A stretch of DNA of 64,000 bases, taken from NCBI GenBank assembly GCA_963664305.2, contig CAXXLV010000002.1, positions 1,696,001-1,760,000 of the forward strand. The letters run 5' to 3'. Source of the DNA: an uncultured Aliarcobacter sp. (GTDB lineage Bacteria > Campylobacterota > Campylobacteria > Campylobacterales > Arcobacteraceae). A program made the translations under genes and the position numbers. The notes under the pieces are model-generated. The model was not told the DNA's origin, made no database searches, and saw only the letters and a list, made by a program, of their open reading frames with translations. Of the stretch, positions 37,147 to 47,784 are shown one piece after another. Each line of letters starts with the position of its first letter. The stretch's first letter is position 1.

Positions 37147-37147
<1 letters not shown>
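36119..37147 (-). CDS. pyrC: Dihydroorotase (homodimeric type)
   Basis: [31 protein letters not shown] motifs. Confidence 0.97.
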
Positions 37148-37503
<356 letters not shown>

Positions 37504-37572: not shown

Positions 37573-38760
37573 TTAAAATGCACGTTTAAATTCTGGATAA
37601 GCTTCAATTCCACACTCATCAACATCTAATCCTTGCATCTCTTCATCATTACCTGCTCTTAAAGGTATAATTTTATTAATAATAAATAAAACTATATATG
37701 AACTCACAAATGCAAATATTGCTACTATTGCTATTCCTTTTAATTGACCTAGTAATGTTATATCATCTCCATTTGATGCAAAAATTCCAACAGCAATTGT
37801 TCCCCAAATTCCATTTACAAGGTGAACAGACAATGCTCCAACTGGATCATCAATTCTTAATTTATCAAATGTTGAAACTCCAATTACAACTAATACTCCA
37901 CCTATTGCACCTATTAAAATTGGTGTATAAATATCATAAAGGTCTGGACCAGCTGTTATTGCAACTAAACCACCTAATGCTCCATTTAAAATCATAGTTA
38001 AATCTAGTTTTTTATACATTATTTGCATAATTATTGCAACAATAATTGCTCCACTTAAACCAGCTGTATTTGTATTCATTATTGTAAGTGCAACTAAATC
38101 TGCATTTTCTTTTGATGCAATAGAACCTACACTTCCACCATTAAATCCAAACCAACCAATCCATAATAAAAATGCACCTAAAGTAACTAAAGGAATATTT
38201 GAAGCAGGAATAACTCTGATTCCACCTTCAGGAGTATATCTTCCACGTCTAGCACCAATAATTAATATTGCAGCTAATAGTGCCCATCCACCAGTACTAT
38301 GAATTACAGTTGAACCAGCTAAGTCATACATAGATAATTCTAAAATTGTTCCTTCTAGAAAATTTGCTCCCCAAGTAACATTTACAACTAATGGATATAA
38401 AACAGCAGCCATTACAATTGTAAATATAGCTAATGGTACTACTTTTGCTCTTTCACTTACTCCACCACTCATAATGTTTATAACTTTACCAACAAATGCC
38501 ATTTGGAATAAAAAAGCAGCATATTTACTCATTGTATCACTTCCTAATTCACCAAATGCAAGTGAATAACCAAACAATAAAAAAGATAGTGATGCGATTG
38601 CATAAATAAGTGTATTTATAGTTAATACTGCTGTAACATTTTTTGTTCGAACAATTCCTGCTTCTAACATTGCAAAACCAGGTACCATGAAAATGATTAA
38701 TGTCATTGCAAAGATTGCATACAGAGTATCAATAACGTAAGATAATGATTCTATACCCAT
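37573..38760 (-). CDS. amtB: Ammonium transporter (divergent paralog)
   Basis: DLAGSTVIH, WFGFNGGS, DDPVGALSVH motifs. Confidence 0.93.
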   Translation of the reverse strand: MGIESLSYVIDTLYAIFAMTLIIFMVPGFAMLEAGIVRTKNVTAVLTINTLIYAIASLSFLLFGYSLAFGELGSDTMSKYAAFLFQMAFVGKVINIMSGGVSERAKVVPLAIFTIVMAAVLYPLVVNVTWGANFLEGTILELSMYDLAGSTVIHSTGGWALLAAILIIGARRGRYTPEGGIRVIPASNIPLVTLGAFLLWIGWFGFNGGSVGSIASKENADLVALTIMNTNTAGLSGAIIVAIIMQIMYKKLDLTMILNGALGGLVAITAGPDLYDIYTPILIGAIGGVLVVIGVSTFDKLRIDDPVGALSVHLVNGIWGTIAVGIFASNGDDITLLGQLKGIAIVAIFAFVSSYIVLFIINKIIPLRAGNDEEMQGLDVDECGIEAYPEFKRAF

Positions 38761-38784: not shown

Positions 38785-38838
38785 ATTATAACAGTATATT
38801 TTTTATAATTAGAGTTTAAATTGTTTAAATTTTATACA
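38785..38838 (-). promoter_or_regulatory. sigma70 promoter (TGnTATAAT) with upstream 17-bp palindromic site TGTTTAAATTTTATACA
   Basis: -10 at 38785-38790; site at 38822-38838; 31-bp gap. Confidence 0.7.
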
Positions 38839-38880: not shown

Positions 38881-39222
<342 letters not shown>

Positions 39223-39232
39223 TTATCCTTAA

Positions 39233-40447
39233 TTATGCTCTTTTAAATTCTGGATAAGCTTCTAATCCAGTTTCATGAATGTCAAGACCATTTACTTCAG
39301 TTTCTTCATCAACTCTTAATCCAATAATTAGGTCTAAGATTTTCCATACAATGAACGATGAGATGAATACAAACGCACCAATAACAACTATACCTTTAAC
39401 TTGTGCTAATAAAGCAACTTCTGGATTGAAAATACCAACCGCTAATGTTCCCCAAATACCTGCAACTAAGTGAACAGATAATGCTCCAACTGGATCATCA
39501 ATTCTAATTTTATCAAAGAATGGTACTGCAAATACAACTAATGCTCCACCAATTAAACCTTCAATAAACGCAATGTTCATACCTAAATCAGGACCTGCTG
39601 TACAAGAAACAAGACCAGCTAATGCACCATTTAAAACCATAGTTAAATCAACTTTTTTATAGATAAGTTGAGTTAAAATAGCAGCCATAATAGCACCTGC
39701 ACAAGCAGCCATATTTGTACTTGCAACTACTGAAGCAATTCCATCAATATCTTCTTTTGAACCTAATGCTAATTGAGAACCACCATTAAATCCGAACCAT
39801 CCCATCCATAAAATAAATGTACCTAAAGTAGCTAATGGTAAATTAGAACCAGGCATTGGTTTTACTTGACCATCTTTAGTATATTTACCTTTTCTAGCAC
39901 CTAGAATTAATACACCAGCTAAAGCAGCCCATCCACCAACAGAGTGAACAATTGTTGAACCAGCAAAGTCAGAGAATCCAGCGATTAAACCACCTAATTC
40001 TGTTCCTCCCCATGTCCAGTGACCTTGAATTGGGTAAATTAAACCAGATAATACTACTGTAAATATTAAGAAAGGCCATAATTTCATTCTTTCAGCAATT
40101 GTTCCTGAAACAACTGATGCAGCTGTTGCAACAAACACTACTTGGAAGAAGAAATCCGCCATTACTGGATATCCTAATGCTTCACTTGTTTTACCAGAAA
40201 GCATTGCACCACTTCCAATGAATGCACTTCCTTCACCATACATGAAGTTGTATCCTACAAAGTAGAACATAATACAAGAAATTGCAAATAACACAACATT
40301 TTTAGTTAAAACTGTTGCAGTATTTTTTGTTCTTGTTAATCCTGATTCTAACATTGCAAAACCAGCTGCCATCCACATTACAAGGATTCCTGCGAACACA
40401 AACAGAAAACCATCTAAAATATATTTTACATCAGTAAAATTTTCCAT
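39233..40447 (-). CDS. amtB: Ammonium transporter
   Basis: FQVVFVATAASVVSG, DFAGSTIVH, WFGFNGGS, DDPVGALSVH motifs. Confidence 0.96.
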   Translation of the reverse strand: MENFTDVKYILDGFLFVFAGILVMWMAAGFAMLESGLTRTKNTATVLTKNVVLFAISCIMFYFVGYNFMYGEGSAFIGSGAMLSGKTSEALGYPVMADFFFQVVFVATAASVVSGTIAERMKLWPFLIFTVVLSGLIYPIQGHWTWGGTELGGLIAGFSDFAGSTIVHSVGGWAALAGVLILGARKGKYTKDGQVKPMPGSNLPLATLGTFILWMGWFGFNGGSQLALGSKEDIDGIASVVASTNMAACAGAIMAAILTQLIYKKVDLTMVLNGALAGLVSCTAGPDLGMNIAFIEGLIGGALVVFAVPFFDKIRIDDPVGALSVHLVAGIWGTLAVGIFNPEVALLAQVKGIVVIGAFVFISSFIVWKILDLIIGLRVDEETEVNGLDIHETGLEAYPEFKRA

Positions 40448-40476: not shown

Positions 40477-40530
40477 ATTATAGGAATTTTTAAACAATAT
40501 GTAAACATATAGTTGTATAAATTTTATACA
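40477..40530 (-). promoter_or_regulatory. sigma70 promoter (TATAAT) with perfect palindrome TGTATAAA-T-TTTATACA
   Basis: -10 at 40477-40482; site at 40514-40530; 31-bp gap. Confidence 0.72.
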
Positions 40531-40618: not shown

Positions 40619-42556
40619 ATGGGAAAAATAATGTTCAGCAAACTTCTTAAGAAGACCAAAATTACCGAAGATGAATTTATAAAAGAGCTATTAAGTTCAT
40701 CTTTTAATTTAGAAAAAATAACGGAAATATATAATGAATTAAATATTGATTTAAATTCATATTATTATAAAGATGAACATATTTTACATTATTGCTGTAA
40801 AAAAGAATTATATCAATCAGTTCAATGGCTACTTGAAAAAGGAGTAAGCCCTGAAATTGAGAACGAACAAAAAGAGACCGCAATTTTTTATTCTATTCAT
40901 TCGAAAAGTAGTGCAATTATTCAACTATTAGTAGAATATAAAGCTGATATTAATCACTTAAATATGTATAGAAGAACTGCTTTACAAGACGCTGTAATAA
41001 GTGCAAATAATAGAATTGTAAACTATTTAATTGAAGTTACAAAGAATTTAGGTAATTGTGATATTCATGGGAATAATCTAATTTTTGATGCAATTGCAAA
41101 TGGAAATCTTGAAATTATAAAAAGAGTCGCTTCGTTACAAGAAGTTAATATAAATCAAGTAAATGAAGAGGGAAGTACAATTTTACATAAAGAAATTGTA
41201 TTAAAAAATAATAGCTTAGCTCTTTTATTAATGGATTTAGGAGCAGATCCTACAATATTAGATAAAAATGGTAAAAATTTTCTTTTCTATGCAATTACAA
41301 AAGGGATTGAAAATATTAGTATTCTTGAAAAAGCTGTTAGCCTTGGATGTAATATAAACAGTAAAAGTTCACAAAATACAACTTTATTAATGGAATCTAT
41401 TAACTATTTTTTAGATACTCCAAAAGAAAATGTTGAACAAAGAAATAGTCATTTTGAAATGATAAAAGAACTAATAAATCTTGGTATAAATGTTGAAGCA
41501 GTAGATAATAAAAGTGAAAATGCTTTATTTTATGCAACAAAAAGTGAAGATAGAGATTTAATAAATATATTTTTAGAAATACCTAGCTTACATCTTGACC
41601 ATGAAAATATCAATGGAGAAACTGTCTTATTGATTTTAGTTTTAAATGGTATTAGAAATGGTGATTTAATTAAACTTTATTTAGAAAAAGGTGCAAATCC
41701 AACATTAGTAAACAAATTTGGAAAATCAATTATTGAAATTCTAATTGATATTATTTTACATATTCAAAATAGAAAAGATTTAGATTTTGAATATAAAATA
41801 TTATTAAATGAAGATGCAGAATATCCTACAGTTTTAGAAAATCTTTTAAGAAATTGTAAAATAGACTTAAATCAACTAAACTCAATGGGTGAACCTATGT
41901 TCTTCCAATCAATTTTACATTTTAATTTCAAATTATTTAAAATTCTTAGAGTAAAAAACATCAATCTTAATCAAAAAGATAAAGATGGAAACAATATCAT
42001 TTTTAAATTGATGGAATATAATTATCAAGGAAGAATAAAAGATAAAAAACTATATTTAAACACATTAAAAAGTCTTATAAACTCTGGTGTTGATATAAAT
42101 GCAAAAAATAATGAAGGTTTAACTGCATTACATGTAGCTGTTACAGAAAAATGTGAATATACTATTAGATTATTATTAGAATTAAGAGCTGATTGTTATA
42201 TAACTGATACAAAAGGTCGAAGTATTATTCACAATTGTATTTGGAAAAACACAACTAAATATTTTAAATTGATTCATAACTATAATAAGGAAATAGTAAA
42301 TATTCCTGATATGTTTGGAGTTAGACCTATAAATTATGCAGCTTTTATGGGTAAAAAAGATTTAGTTATTGAAATGCTTGATGAAGGTGCTTTAGTAAAT
42401 AATCCTATGAAAAAAGACCCTAAAATACTTAAATTTTTAGAAAAATATCATGCTAATATAATAAATCTTACAAAAGGTGTTGAAAAAGAAGTTGATAAAG
42501 CTAATCTAAAACTTCTTGCAGACAATATGATTAAAGAGTTTGGCATTAAAATATAG
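40619..42556 (+). CDS. Ankyrin repeat protein
   Basis: Many G-x-T-x-L-H-like and GADIN-like repeats, e.g. GVDINAKNNEGLTALHVA. Confidence 0.92.
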   Translation: MGKIMFSKLLKKTKITEDEFIKELLSSSFNLEKITEIYNELNIDLNSYYYKDEHILHYCCKKELYQSVQWLLEKGVSPEIENEQKETAIFYSIHSKSSAIIQLLVEYKADINHLNMYRRTALQDAVISANNRIVNYLIEVTKNLGNCDIHGNNLIFDAIANGNLEIIKRVASLQEVNINQVNEEGSTILHKEIVLKNNSLALLLMDLGADPTILDKNGKNFLFYAITKGIENISILEKAVSLGCNINSKSSQNTTLLMESINYFLDTPKENVEQRNSHFEMIKELINLGINVEAVDNKSENALFYATKSEDRDLINIFLEIPSLHLDHENINGETVLLILVLNGIRNGDLIKLYLEKGANPTLVNKFGKSIIEILIDIILHIQNRKDLDFEYKILLNEDAEYPTVLENLLRNCKIDLNQLNSMGEPMFFQSILHFNFKLFKILRVKNINLNQKDKDGNNIIFKLMEYNYQGRIKDKKLYLNTLKSLINSGVDINAKNNEGLTALHVAVTEKCEYTIRLLLELRADCYITDTKGRSIIHNCIWKNTTKYFKLIHNYNKEIVNIPDMFGVRPINYAAFMGKKDLVIEMLDEGALVNNPMKKDPKILKFLEKYHANIINLTKGVEKEVDKANLKLLADNMIKEFGIKI

Positions 42557-42650: not shown

Positions 42651-43538
42651 ATGAAAGAATTTTTTGAAACCTATATACAACACCAAGAAGATATTGAATA
42701 TTTTTTACAAGAGAGTTTAAAAAATATTGGGAGTTTATCATCTCATAAAAAAAATGATTTTAAACAACTTTATAAAATATTCCCTTCTTTAGAATTAGTT
42801 TATATCATCAATAAAGATACAAAAATCCAAACATCAAACAATTTTTATAGATACAAGATTGATGAAAATGCGAAAAATAAAGATAGATCACACTTAATTT
42901 CAAAACTACACTTTAAAGAATCAAATATGGCTTTTTCAAAACCATATATAAGTAGTGCAACAAGAAGTACATGTGTAACTGTTACAATAAAAGAAGGAGA
43001 AGAAATCTTTTTTCTAGATTTTCAGATTGATGTTTTATTACAAAAATTAAATTTAATTGAACTAAATAAACCATTTCATAGTGTAACAAAAAGCTTTTAC
43101 ATTTTAGCTGGTTTTTCAATGATGATTTTAGCACTAGCTACTATAATCTTCTCATTATATGATTTTGTTATTTACATCTTTTCTAAACATGATATCGTTT
43201 TAGAAATGATATTTAAACCAATAATTGCATTAACACTTAGTATTGCTATATTTGACTTGGCAAAAACCATTTTGGAACAAGAAGTATTTTTTAAATCATA
43301 TTCAAAAAATTCAAAAGTCGAAACAAAACTTTTAACAAAATTTTTGACAACAATTATTATTGCATTATCTATTGAAGCATTGATTGTTGTATTTAAAATT
43401 GCAATTAATGACTACGACCAAATGATTAACGCATTTTATCTAATCGCTGGAATTGCTTTAATTTTAATTTCATTAACAGTATTTATCTATTTTTCATCAA
43501 AAAGATATAAACAAACTACTGATTCTCAAAATTTATAA
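42651..43538 (+). CDS. PDC/Cache-like domain membrane protein, PglG-like
   Basis: N-terminal domain with SKPYISSAT; C-terminal TM block LTLSIAIFDLAKTILEQEV..IIALSIEAL. Confidence 0.7.
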   Translation: MKEFFETYIQHQEDIEYFLQESLKNIGSLSSHKKNDFKQLYKIFPSLELVYIINKDTKIQTSNNFYRYKIDENAKNKDRSHLISKLHFKESNMAFSKPYISSATRSTCVTVTIKEGEEIFFLDFQIDVLLQKLNLIELNKPFHSVTKSFYILAGFSMMILALATIIFSLYDFVIYIFSKHDIVLEMIFKPIIALTLSIAIFDLAKTILEQEVFFKSYSKNSKVETKLLTKFLTTIIIALSIEALIVVFKIAINDYDQMINAFYLIAGIALILISLTVFIYFSSKRYKQTTDSQNL

Positions 43539-43630: not shown

Positions 43631-43683
43631 TGTTTATTTTTTATACATTTTTTTAGTTTTTTTTCATTTTTATACAGTATAAT
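43631..43683 (+). promoter_or_regulatory. sigma70 promoter (TATAAT) with upstream site TGTTTATTTTTTATACA and a second half-site
   Basis: Site at 43631-43647; -10 at 43678-43683; 30-bp gap; extra TTTATACA ending at 43676. Confidence 0.68.
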
Positions 43684-43739: not shown

Positions 43740-44492
43740 ATGCAAGAATATATCGCAAAAGATAGTATTTCCAAAGAAATTTTAAACTCAGCAAAACTTT
43801 TACAAGCAGTAGAAGTAAATGCTTTAATTCTTGGAGAAAATGGTGTTGGGAAAAAATCTTTAGCTAAATATATTTTACCCCAGTCTGAAATTTATGATGC
43901 AAAAAGTCTTCAAAAAGATATCATGGATGATGTATTAACTTTACAAAATGAAGCTATTATTATTGATAAAATAAATGAAATCACAAATATAGACTTATTT
44001 TTAAAATGGATAGAAGAAAATTCAATAAGAATTATTGCTATTTCACCTACTGAAAATCTAAATCAAAAATTAAAAGATATTTTCTCTATTAATTTAGAAA
44101 TTCCAATTTTAAGTAAAAGAGAAGAAGATACAAAAGCTTTAGTAAATAAATTTTCTCAAGAAGCTAGTTCTATTTTAGATATGCCATTAATTCCACAATC
44201 AAAATTAATTATAAATATCTCAAATAACTCTCATAGTTTAAGAAAATCTATCTATTTTTCATATTTATTTGAAACAATTGGGGAACATGAAATTTTAATG
44301 TTTTTAGAAAAATATATAAGTGAAAATTTATATGGAGAAAATTCATATAAAGATTTATCTTATATTTTTGAAGTTCCTTTATTAAAAGCTGCAACAAAAA
44401 AATATAAATCTCAAGTTCAAGTAGCAAAACATTTAGGTTTAAATAGAATTACATTAAGAAAAAAATTGGAAATTTATAAAGATTTATTATGA
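43740..44492 (+). CDS. NtrC-like regulator: degenerate AAA+ domain and Fis-type HTH, no receiver domain
   Basis: Walker A LILGENGVGK, IPILSKREED sensor region, HTH LGLNRITLRKKL; no GAFTGA. Confidence 0.85.
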   Translation: MQEYIAKDSISKEILNSAKLLQAVEVNALILGENGVGKKSLAKYILPQSEIYDAKSLQKDIMDDVLTLQNEAIIIDKINEITNIDLFLKWIEENSIRIIAISPTENLNQKLKDIFSINLEIPILSKREEDTKALVNKFSQEASSILDMPLIPQSKLIINISNNSHSLRKSIYFSYLFETIGEHEILMFLEKYISENLYGENSYKDLSYIFEVPLLKAATKKYKSQVQVAKHLGLNRITLRKKLEIYKDLL

Positions 44493-47029
44493 CAGAACTT
44501 AATATACAAATTGAAGAGTTAATTTCAAATAATGCAACAGACTTTCAAATCTCAAAAGTTTTTAAAACTTATTATAAAAATTATTTAGAATCTATTGATA
44601 CAACTGTTGAAACAACTGGCGGAAAAGATTTTTTCATCAAACACACAAAACACACTGACAAATTTTTAATCCTTTTATACAAATATATCTTAAGAAAAAA
44701 CTTTGGTTCTCATCAACCAATGAGTACATCAATTCCTATTAGTTTAGTTGCTCTTGGATCTTACGGTAGAGAGCAATTATGTATCTATTCAGATATTGAT
44801 ATTATGATTTTATATGAGGATATTAAAGGTTATAATCTAAAAGATATTATGGAAGAGTTTATTACTCTTGCATGGGATTGTGGACTAAAACTTGGTTCTC
44901 GTGTTCATGAATTAAAAGAAATTACAGAAGTTGTAAAAGAAGATATAACTATAAAAAGTTCTATTTTAGAATCAAGAATGATTTATGGTTCAAAAATTTT
45001 ATGGTTTAGATATGAAAATGTTTTAAAAATCGTAAGAAAAACTGGACAAAAAGAGTTTATACTAGAAAAACTTGAAGAACATAAACAAAGATTACTAAAA
45101 TATCCACTAAAAATGGAACCAAATATTAAAGAAGGTTATGGTGGACTTAGAGAAACAAATCTAATGTATTGGATGGCAAATGTCTTATATGGTGTTACAA
45201 ATACTAAAGATTTAATTGGGACTCAATTTACGGAAGAAGAGTATAGAAAATATAGACAAGCTTTAGAATTTATTTTTCAAGTAAGAAATGCTTTACATAA
45301 TATTGCTAGAAAAAAATTAGACCAAGTAACTTTTGATATTTTACCTGATTTAAGTTCTAAACTAGGATTTAAAAATAGTTCAAGATATACAAAAGATAGA
45401 CTTTGTATGTCAAAAATCATCTCTTGTTTACACATAATTCATAACTTTACTGCAACAATGGTAAAAAAATTTACAAGAATTGCTTTTTTTGAAGCATCAA
45501 ATATCTCAAAATTAAAAAAACAAAGATATAAAAAGAATCTTTATATTATTGATAATGAACTTTATTGTTCATTTAGTGCAAAACCTCAATCTTTAAATTA
45601 TATGCTTAAAGAACTTATTGAATTACCAACAAACGTAGAAAAATTTGATAGGTCATATATTTACTATTTAAGTAAAGCTAAACTTCCAAAAGTTCAAACA
45701 AAAGAGTTGAAAAAAACTGTAAAAACACTTTTATGTAAACCTAATTTGTATCCATTAATAAAACTTATTTACAATGCAGGACTGTTTAGAGCTGTTCTTC
45801 CTAGTACTAAAACTATGATTGATTTACCGCAATTTGATGGATATCATAAACATCCTGTTGATATTCACTCTATAAAAACATTAAAATTTTCACAAAATAT
45901 TGAAAATGAACATGTAAAATCAATCTATAATGAATTAACAAATGAACAAAAAATTCTTGTAAGATTGGTATCTTTTTTCCATGATATTGGAAAAGGAAGA
46001 AAAGAGGATCATCATATTGTAGGAGAAAAACTATTTAAAAGTATGATGAAGTCATTTGATTTTGATGAAGAATTTATTAAAATTGGTGCAAATTTAGTTA
46101 GATATCACAATATGATGTCATACATGGCAACGCATGAAGATATTTATTCTGAAAAAACTATTTTAAACTTTACAGGGCTTATTAAAACAAAAGAGTCTTT
46201 AAATATGCTATATGTGATAACTTATTGTGATATTTCAGCTGTTGCAAAAAATATTTTCAATAGCTCTATTTCATCACTATTAAGACAGTTATATTATCAA
46301 TCATTACCAGCATTTGAAGATGAAGAATTTTTAAATGAAAGTAAAAGAAGAATTGCTAAACAAAATACAATTAAAAATCTTGAAAGATACAAAGAACTAC
46401 CTACAATTTTACAAAAGAAAATTATGTATATAGCTTCAAACCAAATCTTTTTAAGATTAAAAGCAGAAGATATTTTAGATATTGCGATTAAAGCAAAAGA
46501 TGTTGATACGTATATTTATAAAATTACAAATGAGCCTCAATTAACTATTAGAATTATTAGAAAATCTCCTCTAAATCTTGGTTATTTATTGGGTAAATTA
46601 GAGTTTTTAAATATTGCATATATGAATATTTTTAAATTGTATGATAATAAAAAAGCTTTTGAAATTTCTTTTTCAGAAAAAGTTGACAATGAAGATATTT
46701 ATTTTATTGAAGAGATTATAAAAGACTCTTTTGATATGAATAAAACAACAAATTTATTAACTCCAATTATTAAAAAAGAGAACATAAAAATAGATTGTAA
46801 CCATACAGCATATCTAGCTTCTATGCATATTGTGGCAAAAGACCAAAAAGGTTTATTTGCTTATATTGCTAAAATTTTTGATGATTTTAATGTTGAAATA
46901 GAGAGTGCAAAACTTCACACACTTAAAGGTTATGCAAGAGATTTAATTTTGATTGAGAAAAATGGAAATTTCTGTTCAAATCAAGATGAAATTGTAAATC
47001 TTATGTGTAGAGGTGATAAAACAGAATAA
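44489..47029 (+). CDS. glnD: PII uridylyltransferase / uridylyl-removing enzyme
   Basis: ALGSYGREQL..SDIDI, EPNIKEGYGGLR, QFDGYH, HDIGKGR HD domain, C-terminal ACT domain (DQKGL). Confidence 0.93.
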   Translation: MTELNIQIEELISNNATDFQISKVFKTYYKNYLESIDTTVETTGGKDFFIKHTKHTDKFLILLYKYILRKNFGSHQPMSTSIPISLVALGSYGREQLCIYSDIDIMILYEDIKGYNLKDIMEEFITLAWDCGLKLGSRVHELKEITEVVKEDITIKSSILESRMIYGSKILWFRYENVLKIVRKTGQKEFILEKLEEHKQRLLKYPLKMEPNIKEGYGGLRETNLMYWMANVLYGVTNTKDLIGTQFTEEEYRKYRQALEFIFQVRNALHNIARKKLDQVTFDILPDLSSKLGFKNSSRYTKDRLCMSKIISCLHIIHNFTATMVKKFTRIAFFEASNISKLKKQRYKKNLYIIDNELYCSFSAKPQSLNYMLKELIELPTNVEKFDRSYIYYLSKAKLPKVQTKELKKTVKTLLCKPNLYPLIKLIYNAGLFRAVLPSTKTMIDLPQFDGYHKHPVDIHSIKTLKFSQNIENEHVKSIYNELTNEQKILVRLVSFFHDIGKGRKEDHHIVGEKLFKSMMKSFDFDEEFIKIGANLVRYHNMMSYMATHEDIYSEKTILNFTGLIKTKESLNMLYVITYCDISAVAKNIFNSSISSLLRQLYYQSLPAFEDEEFLNESKRRIAKQNTIKNLERYKELPTILQKKIMYIASNQIFLRLKAEDILDIAIKAKDVDTYIYKITNEPQLTIRIIRKSPLNLGYLLGKLEFLNIAYMNIFKLYDNKKAFEISFSEKVDNEDIYFIEEIIKDSFDMNKTTNLLTPIIKKENIKIDCNHTAYLASMHIVAKDQKGLFAYIAKIFDDFNVEIESAKLHTLKGYARDLILIEKNGNFCSNQDEIVNLMCRGDKTE

Positions 47030-47040
47030 AAACTGTTTTA

Positions 47041-47784
47041 TTATGCGCCTCTTCCGAAACAAAATCCTCCACCTAAACTACTTTTTTCACCTAAACCAAC
47101 AGCAAGTGATAAAAAAGCTAGTTTTTGTGATATTTCATCTTTATTAGGTACTATTCTTAATTTATTCCCTATTAATCTTACAATTCTTTCTTTACTATTT
47201 TTAGTAGTTTTAAAATATATTGATTGAGGTTTTTCATTTTTTAATTCAATTTCTTGAATAAAATTATTTGAATCATTAACCTCTTCTTTATAAAATTGTT
47301 TTAACTTCTTTTCTAAATTATTTTGAAGTCTTTTTTGTAAAGATAAAATATCACCATTATAATATAGTGACCAAAATAGTTGTCTACCTTCAGAATCTCT
47401 TCTATCAGAAACAATAACAGGTGATGCACTATATAACTCTTTGATAAAATATTGTTCTATCTCTTTTTTTTCTACATTTATTACTTGTAAAAAGTTATTA
47501 TTTACATTTTGATAAAGTAAAATTTCTAATTCGTTTATTAATTCTTTATCAATACTTCTGATTACAAATTTATAAACTTTGTCTTTTTTATAAATTCTAT
47601 CACTCTCTGTTGGATAGAAGTTCCCAAAACAGTAATTATTCATAGATTTATCTTTATTTTCTAAATCTAATTTTTTACTTTGGTATATAGAAAAATTTAT
47701 ATATTTTGATAAAACATCAAAACTCTCTTTTAATTCTATAAAATCTTTTAAATATGCTTCGCATTTTAGTTCAAATAAAGTCAT
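47041..47784 (-). CDS. cas6: Solitary CRISPR-associated endoribonuclease Cas6 family protein
   Basis: YCFGN..Y.FVIRS N-terminal RAMP motifs, SPVIV, C-terminal glycine loop GLGEKSSLGGGF. Confidence 0.85.
   Translation of the reverse strand: MTLFELKCEAYLKDFIELKESFDVLSKYINFSIYQSKKLDLENKDKSMNNYCFGNFYPTESDRIYKKDKVYKFVIRSIDKELINELEILLYQNVNNNFLQVINVEKKEIEQYFIKELYSASPVIVSDRRDSEGRQLFWSLYYNGDILSLQKRLQNNLEKKLKQFYKEEVNDSNNFIQEIELKNEKPQSIYFKTTKNSKERIVRLIGNKLRIVPNKDEISQKLAFLSLAVGLGEKSSLGGGFCFGRGA

Follow-up and report, generated by a model that had tools for sequence, protein, structure and literature searches.

A relic NtrC-NtrB pair as a candidate nitrogen regulator of free-living Campylobacterota

The DNA considered here, called the window, is a 64,000-nt stretch of the genome of an uncultured Aliarcobacter sp. 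(contig CAXXLV010000002.1, positions 1,696,001 to 1,760,000). Directly upstream of glnD it encodes a 250-aa protein, the regulator, which by its sequence is an NtrC descendant without receiver domain, GAFTGA loop or catalytic ATPase residues. It is accompanied, in exactly the same genomes of the phylum, by an NtrB descendant without the phospho-histidine, referred to here as the partner or NtrB relic. We consider the pair a real, conserved system, which likely turns on genes for nitrogen uptake through direct contact between proteins and not through phosphorylation. The best model, a sigma70 activator restrained in the manner of NifL and NifA by a PII-gated pseudokinase, is moderately probable as a whole, with its parts graded separately below. 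The co-occurrence of the two genes, their ancestries and motif losses, and the dyad with its fixed promoter spacing and its joint loss are results of sequence and profile comparison.

A literature search found no description of the pair or of the dyad; most subscription journals and all supplements, possible sites of regulon tables, lay outside it. One comparative regulon study, as far as its available text goes, left out the Epsilonproteobacteria because it found in them no orthologues of its target regulators, NtrC included (PMC5343134). The pair would fill the place of the nitrogen control system that this group lacks: it is a candidate global regulator of nitrogen in the free-living Campylobacterota, with partner, binding site and targets named, so that control of nitrogen assimilation and of nifA in these bacteria becomes directly testable. 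The dyad would also be a sequence marker of nitrogen-starvation genes in Campylobacterota metagenomes. If the model is true, a two-component system has lost phosphorylation in both proteins yet kept its regulon, in parallel to NifL-NifA but from another ancestor.

Ancestry and co-occurrence of the two proteins

The regulator and its parts are:
43740..44492, + strand: NtrC relic, 250 aa, with a degenerate AAA+ domain at about residues 1-179 and an NtrC/Fis-type helix-turn-helix (HTH) at about 203-245
43767..43820, + strand: N-terminal helix, residues 10-27, which with strand 116-120 forms the predicted contact surface for the NtrB relic
43833..43853, + strand: Walker A, residues 32-38, kept across the regulator family
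43956..43973, + strand: degenerate Walker B, residues 73-78, with the position of the catalytic Glu variable in the family
44346..44468, + strand: HTH region, residues 203-243, the most conserved part, with recognition helix NRITLRKK

A Pfam scan of the regulator gives a weak stretch of Sigma54_activat (residues 6-54) and HTH_8/HTH_50 (200-246), and no receiver domain. Aligned by hhalign with E. coli NtrC (probability 98.2), the family profile begins at NtrC residue 136 and runs to the end; the gap upstream of the gene, 200 nt, leaves no room for a hidden receiver, and among the 80 strong matches the open frames measure 214-335 aa. Receiver-bearing or fused forms were sought among longer proteins (439-475 aa lying outside the scope), with partial matches to ordinary activators as the only result. 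The sole fusion in an all-length search was P0236, a 472-aa protein that combines residues 1-105 of the regulator with the signalling domain of a chemoreceptor and is perhaps a chimera of the assembly.

The GAFTGA loop and the arginine-finger segment of E. coli NtrC both fall in gaps of the hhalign alignment, and the GAFTGA loop is missing from an alignment of 71 diverse family members. Over these 71 sequences the Walker A motif, GENGVGK in the window, is conserved (G32 in 70/71, G37 in 70/71, K38 in 65/71), as is the HTH, whereas Walker B and the arginine of sensor II vary: position 76, D here, is E in 17, Y in 12 and T in 11; position 77, K here, is N in 39 and D in 16; and position 165, that of the sensor II arginine, is H, Y or I. 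The first-pass annotation, made from the letters and a list of open reading frames (ORFs), had described a receiver-less 250-aa frame with Walker A kept, Walker B altered, GAFTGA missing and an NtrC/Fis-like C-terminal HTH, and each of these descriptions holds.

The best NCBIfam match is TIGR01818 (ntrC) over residues 187-244, at 29.3 bits, far under the family cut-off of 558.6. A profile of the HTH by itself scores 39-51 bits against alphaproteobacterial and Nitrospirota NtrC, the type to which it is closest, and 13 against a NifA-like protein. In a search of the full family profile over 3659 ORFs, 10/10 reference NtrC proteins rank above the genome's own NifA and NtrX, a signal that comes from the HTH. 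The structure model (pLDDT 96.5) resembles the AAA+ domains of sigma54 activators, and the named close homologues, at up to 97% identity, are Arcobacter and Aliarcobacter proteins.

The NtrB relic is a 226-aa protein present in one copy (G000:C2:375353-376030, - strand), directly behind rpoD, outside the window and 1.36 Mb from the regulator. Members of its family (ORFs of about 230 aa) are mostly annotated as hypothetical, and the Atlas clusters that contain them, all from Campylobacterota, are labelled only "hypothetical" or PAS. Compared singly, the partner is weakly similar to E. coli NtrB (probability 3.2) and a PDB sequence search returned nothing significant, so that profiles were needed to trace its ancestry. 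Searched with the partner profile, the 3659 ORFs place 10/10 reference NtrB proteins above all others, including the genome's 58 other ATPase-domain proteins; profile-profile alignment with 10 NtrB sequences reaches probabilities of 96-97.5; and the only NCBIfam kinase family matched is NR(II), by 8/17 members. The structure model has a PAS domain (residues 1-90), also supported by the profile alignment and weak Pfam matches and with invariant P14, F18, N28, A51 and G56, followed by a kinase catalytic fold (105-226). For the latter, VIA-align puts the C-terminal domain of NtrB (1R62) at the top of its list (Z 13.9, root-mean-square deviation 2.7, 119 residues aligned), level with other kinases.

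The DHp segment with the phospho-histidine falls in a gap of the partner-NtrB profile alignment, and His never exceeds 24/104 in any column of the family alignment. The partner residues aligned to the G1 box are non-glycine, and no G2 motif was found in the consensus of the 104 sequences; a candidate N-box residue, N152, is kept in 76/104, with a gapped register relative to NtrB. Three residues, D134, P138 and G173, are invariant in 104/104 partners and lie in a YDxSxP loop and a beta-hairpin common to NtrB. The corresponding YDPS loop of E. coli NtrB is probably part of its PII site. The profiles thus identify the partner as an NtrB descendant without the phospho-histidine. Two genomes (G130 and G153) have two NtrB-relic copies and one regulator each.

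Among 301 genomes of the phylum, the regulator is matched in 81, strongly in 80, as a single-copy gene. It is nearly universal in 11 smaller families, occurs in 9/16 genomes of the window's family, and is missing from nearly all genomes of two large families (f2 and f3); a profile re-search of five same-genus non-carriers gave weak matches only (E 1e-4 or worse). The strong partner matches are in exactly the same 80 genomes (80/80). Nine weak matches are discordant between the two proteins (E about 1e-4 to 8e-4) and look like noise; the two inspected, in G197 and G068, were unrelated ORFs and were rejected. Among the matches listed, full-length regulators in titled genomes are from Campylobacterota only, those in other phyla being partial; named relatives include Arcobacter, Sulfurimonas, Sulfurospirillum, Sulfurovum, Hydrogenimonas, Nitratifractor and Nitratiruptor. 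glnD is strongly matched in 84 genomes and weakly in 34 more, and all 80 carriers of the pair have it. The weak GlnD-like protein of f3, about 770-870 aa long, is kept by 34/124 genomes of that family, without the regulator pair.

The gene order around the regulator was compared at 62 loci, picked for spread (hence non-random) and of unequal lengths. Regulator and partner are adjacent in 27/62, often next to amtB-PII, and unlinked in 35/62. An amt gene lies within 4.5 kb of the regulator in 23/62 loci and glnD in 9/62, while 27/62 place the regulator between slyD and fabD, away from any nitrogen gene. The 4-nt overlap of regulator and glnD (a shared ATGA, 43740-44492 and 44489-47029, both + strand) is as first described, but since most loci differ it is a local Arcobacteraceae arrangement, and coupling to glnD was rejected as the defining feature of the system.

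The dyad and the predicted regulon

A 17-bp dyad, TGTATA-N5-TATACA, was first seen upstream of amt genes in carriers. The window contains exactly three (0.47 expected), before the regulator and before both amtB genes. These sites, with the genes that follow them, are:
43631..43647, + strand: dyad with one mismatch before the regulator-glnD operon, predicted autoregulatory site
43678..43683, + strand: TATAAT -10 hexamer, 30 nt below the regulator dyad
44489..47029, + strand: glnD, PII uridylyltransferase/uridylyl-removing enzyme, 846 aa, overlapping the regulator by 4 nt (ATGA)
40514..40530, - strand: perfect dyad before the first amtB-PII pair
40477..40482, - strand: TATAAT -10 hexamer, 31 nt below the first amtB dyad
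39233..40447, - strand: amtB, first copy, predicted target
38881..39219, - strand: PII protein with Tyr51, first pair
38822..38838, - strand: dyad with one mismatch before the second amtB-PII pair
38785..38790, - strand: TATAAT -10 hexamer, 31 nt below the second amtB dyad
37573..38760, - strand: amtB, second copy, predicted target
37147..37485, - strand: PII protein with Tyr51, second pair

The two amtB-PII pairs lie close by, as had been noted, the nearest amtB start (40447) being 3.3 kb off. GlnD keeps both its NTase and its HD motifs. Just above the regulator's -10 hexamer, at 43660-43683, is a second half-site-like run, which could give autorepression at high occupancy.

Genome-wide, 34 sites match the dyad with at most one mismatch, and 23 of them are intergenic, though intergenic DNA makes up only 6.5% of the genome; 12 shuffles of the intergenic DNA gave 0-6. 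Clear nitrogen genes follow 16 of the 23, amidoligase genes follow two, and five have no clear nitrogen link. The sixteen are the sites of glnA, gltB, the two amtB copies, nifA, nirB, and one transporter each of narK type and nitrate-ABC type; of urtA, ureD, eutB, another ABC binding protein of urea type and an amino-acid ABC ATPase; and of two quinohemoprotein amine dehydrogenases and the regulator-glnD operon itself. This predicted regulon is like that of NtrC with its core and expansions (glnA, amtB, glnBK, gltB and nitrate/nitrite and urea genes), as given in the available text of PMC5343134. The dyads at the two alpha genes of the quinohemoprotein amine dehydrogenases (L133, L138) are perfect, with the -10 hexamer at 41 nt, which exceeds the usual distance by one helical turn. 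Those at L126 and L127 (G000:C1:690946 and 703939) precede DUF2126 amidoligase/transglutaminase and circularly permuted ATP-grasp genes, so that these poorly understood clusters fall within the predicted nitrogen regulon.

A generic dyad rule, made from the amt and own-genome sites, was applied to the 200 nt upstream of glnA in 60 genomes. A dyad was found in 42/47 carriers of the pair and 0/13 non-carriers (shuffled means 3.1 and 0.9). Perfect dyads number 0, 0 and 0 in three non-carrier genomes, and 6 and 8 in two carriers. The same 17-bp geometry is seen in the NtrC-type sites of E. coli glnA and glnL, as judged by the NtrC-site consensus.

In 33 of the 42 glnA promoters with a dyad, a TATAAT-like hexamer lies 31-32 nt below it, and an automatic pick finds the same spacing at 13/23 own-genome sites. 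The dyad is thereby located at about -52 and upstream of the core promoter, where established promoter architecture would place an activator. A search of the 75 nt below each of the 23 dyads with one pattern found no sigma54 motif. rpoN is present in this genome, about 16 kb from nifA; it was not found in 20/79 carriers, several of these with assemblies in one or two contigs, and carriers without rpoN still have the glnA dyad, for which reason NifA was rejected as its reader. No canonical NtrC was found in the genome (8000 bases lying outside the search), in which the sole intact sigma54-activator domain is that of NifA; therefore no canonical NtrC explains the regulation.

NtrC proteins that likewise lack GAFTGA and act at sigma70 promoters are known from Caulobacter crescentus and Rhodobacter capsulatus. 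In both organisms the receiver and a kinase NtrB are retained, whereas the pair described here has neither. Caulobacter NtrC is reported to require intact Walker A and B residues, as far as the available text goes (10.1101/2023.06.06.543975).

That the regulator reads the dyad is very probable, and that it activates rather than represses hardly less so. Its helix and the site may vary together: TGTAT is found in 11/16 half-sites with Ile at recognition-helix residue 237, in 3/10 with Val, in 2/6 with Ala and in 1/44 with Asn, which with about five changes on the tree is suggestive only. Quite differently, the regulator might be a repressor or a general DNA-binding protein like Fis, and the reader of the dyad some other factor that was lost from the same lineages. 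Fis is a 98-aa protein without an AAA+ domain, with C-terminal helices and an HTH similar to those of the regulator, whose HTH matches Fis structures at E 7e-10; we know of no dedicated partner or nitrogen-specific regulon for it. The 27/62 loci between the housekeeping genes slyD and fabD would suit such a role, and Caulobacter NtrC, according to the part of the source available, binds a Fis-like motif (10.1101/2023.06.06.543975). Against it, the dyad marks nitrogen genes, stands at a fixed spacing outside the core promoter, is also found before the gene of the regulator itself, and has a half-site that follows the recognition-helix residue (over the same few changes). We regard this reading as very improbable.

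Predicted contact and mode of action

Contact between the two proteins is a structure prediction. The regulator-partner complex has an ipSAE of 0.74, against 0.00 for the best of three controls, with 100% of contacts agreeing between runs and a partner pLDDT of at least 80. The ipSAE mark is reached by 116/157 solved complexes and 2/215 mismatched pairs, counts that are only rough with our own alignments. In the prediction, the regulator's N-terminal helix (residues 10-27), together with strand 116-120, contacts two helices of the partner's ATPase-like domain (106-123 and 144-152); the invariant loop and hairpin of the partner (D134, P138, G173) lie outside this interface. That the partner acts through direct binding is probable.

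Both proteins descend from the proteobacterial NtrB-NtrC (NRII-NRI) system, with marked differences from it. The regulator has no receiver, GAFTGA, catalytic Walker B, arginine finger or sensor II arginine, and would not be sigma54-dependent; the partner has no DHp histidine and no G1 or G2 box; the regulator gene comes first where the two are linked, and they are often unlinked. ATP hydrolysis by the regulator and autophosphorylation of the partner are both expected to be missing. As these families are defined, neither protein would be counted as an NtrC or an NtrB.

A close parallel is the NifL-NifA-GlnK system of Azotobacter vinelandii (PDB 9QQ6), likewise a kinase homologue without phosphotransfer and a receiver-less AAA+ regulator, in which NifL is reported to control NifA by stoichiometric, PII-gated binding (PMC12998190, available in part). 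The pair described here most likely works in a similar way. It differs in its NtrBC origin and in being half as large, and would act globally, as a sigma70 regulator placed above nifA. Unlike the partner, NifL has DH helices, a nucleotide-binding GHKL domain and an FAD-binding PAS domain; unlike the regulator, NifA has a GAF domain and GAFTGA, is an ATPase that depends on sigma54, and has nif genes as its only targets. In 9QQ6 the AAA+ domain contacts the GHKL domain as well as the DH domain, the latter of which the partner does not have. It seems fairly probable that phosphorelay and ATPase motor were lost on both sides and replaced by a new protein interface, with PII acting on a dead kinase domain, independently of NifL-NifA.

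In the model favoured here, the regulator bound to the dyad would recruit sigma70 polymerase to nitrogen-gene promoters. In nitrogen excess, unmodified PII would be bound and the partner would keep the regulator inactive; in nitrogen limitation, GlnD would uridylylate PII and release the partner's block, and the freed regulator would raise expression of glnA, nifA, both amtB-PII operons and the operon that it shares with glnD. Since nifA is in the predicted regulon, the regulator would sit above the sigma54-dependent nif genes. We infer the sign of control and the PII step; the latter, that PII binds the partner and GlnD-made PII-UMP lifts the block, is rather more probable than the contrary, because in the available parts of the sources GlnK binds NtrB (PMC12942738) and probably binds the GHKL domain of NifL (PMC9866876), and because all carriers keep glnD.

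Several observations weigh against this model or the results beneath it. The carriers and non-carriers track lifestyle and kinship, so that the co-occurrence counts are not independent, and glnD is also found in 4 genomes of the same genus that do not have the pair and, as a weak match, in 34 such genomes of f3. The dyad rule failed in 5/47 carriers (one of them a mis-called start), and other spacer lengths give 0-11 sites, with lengths 3, 7 and 9 giving 8-11 in this AT-rich DNA. The fold search does not single out NtrB among the tied kinases. The AAA+ part of the regulator by itself scores one FlgR at 50.8 bits and the ten reference NtrC proteins at 22-49, with no NtrC/FlgR separation; the NtrC assignment is therefore drawn from the HTH, the partner and the regulon, and an origin of the pair from FlgR/FlgS would be compatible with the AAA+ part taken alone, FlgS lying outside the set compared for the partner's ancestry. 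Finally, because the similar NifL-NifA complex is already solved and its structure (9QQ6) is among the structure matches, the complex score may owe part of its height to that likeness, and the predicted interface is compatible with an anti-activator and a co-activator alike.

The main competing explanation is the second of these: the NtrB relic would dimerise the regulator or position it on the DNA, and in nitrogen excess unmodified PII would pull the relic away or lock it. Besides an interface that suits either sign, it is favoured by the absence of either gene without the other in 301 genomes, where a dispensable inhibitor might sometimes be lost alone, and by the regulator's loss of ring-forming residues, so that a scaffold from outside could be required. 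NifL, the pseudokinase known as a precedent, is however an inhibitor, and the Fis-like C-terminus could perhaps dimerise alone. A co-activator role seems unlikely, although not remote.

Alternatively the pair might bind directly but respond to a metabolite (glutamine or 2-oxoglutarate) at the partner's PAS domain, or to a nucleotide at the regulator's P-loop, in place of PII. The PAS domain is kept with invariant residues, Walker A is conserved despite the loss of the hydrolysis residues, and glnD is near the regulator in only 9/62 loci, all of which would fit; the retention of glnD in all 80 carriers and of the NtrB YDxSxP loop and beta-hairpin, outside the predicted regulator interface, would not. 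This we consider improbable, and more so than the co-activator.

The first-pass annotation had itself proposed a one-component sigma70 activator, in which the dead AAA+ domain binds PII, PII-UMP or 2-oxoglutarate; on that reading the NtrB relic would be irrelevant. Phosphorylation-free, sigma54-independent action by an NtrC-derived protein is supported, and the glnD overlap, the two nearby amtB-PII pairs in its own genome and the unlinked partner in 35/62 loci could be cited for the remainder. Co-occurrence in 80/80 genomes even when unlinked, adjacency in 27/62 loci and the predicted complex make the one-component part highly doubtful.

Neighbouring genes

One further gene may be connected with the system:
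42651..43538, + strand: 295-aa protein, possible accessory, between amt and regulator in Arcobacteraceae and family f5

The gene has this position in 7 Arcobacteraceae and 3 f5 genomes. Its product matches no Pfam or NCBIfam family, and has C-terminal segments that are hydrophobic by eye. In two inspected same-genus non-carriers an amt-ankyrin-glnD locus stays while the regulator and the 295-aa gene are both gone; the protein is possibly an accessory of the nitrogen cluster.

The ankyrin-repeat protein in the window (40619-42556, + strand, 645 aa) is encoded divergently from amtB; in the two inspected genomes without the regulator, its gene directly abuts a more divergent glnD. On the other side, a Cas6-like gene (47041-47784, - strand) is convergent with glnD. 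It may be an orphan, since a crude repeat scan of the genome (8000 bases lying outside it) found no CRISPR array.

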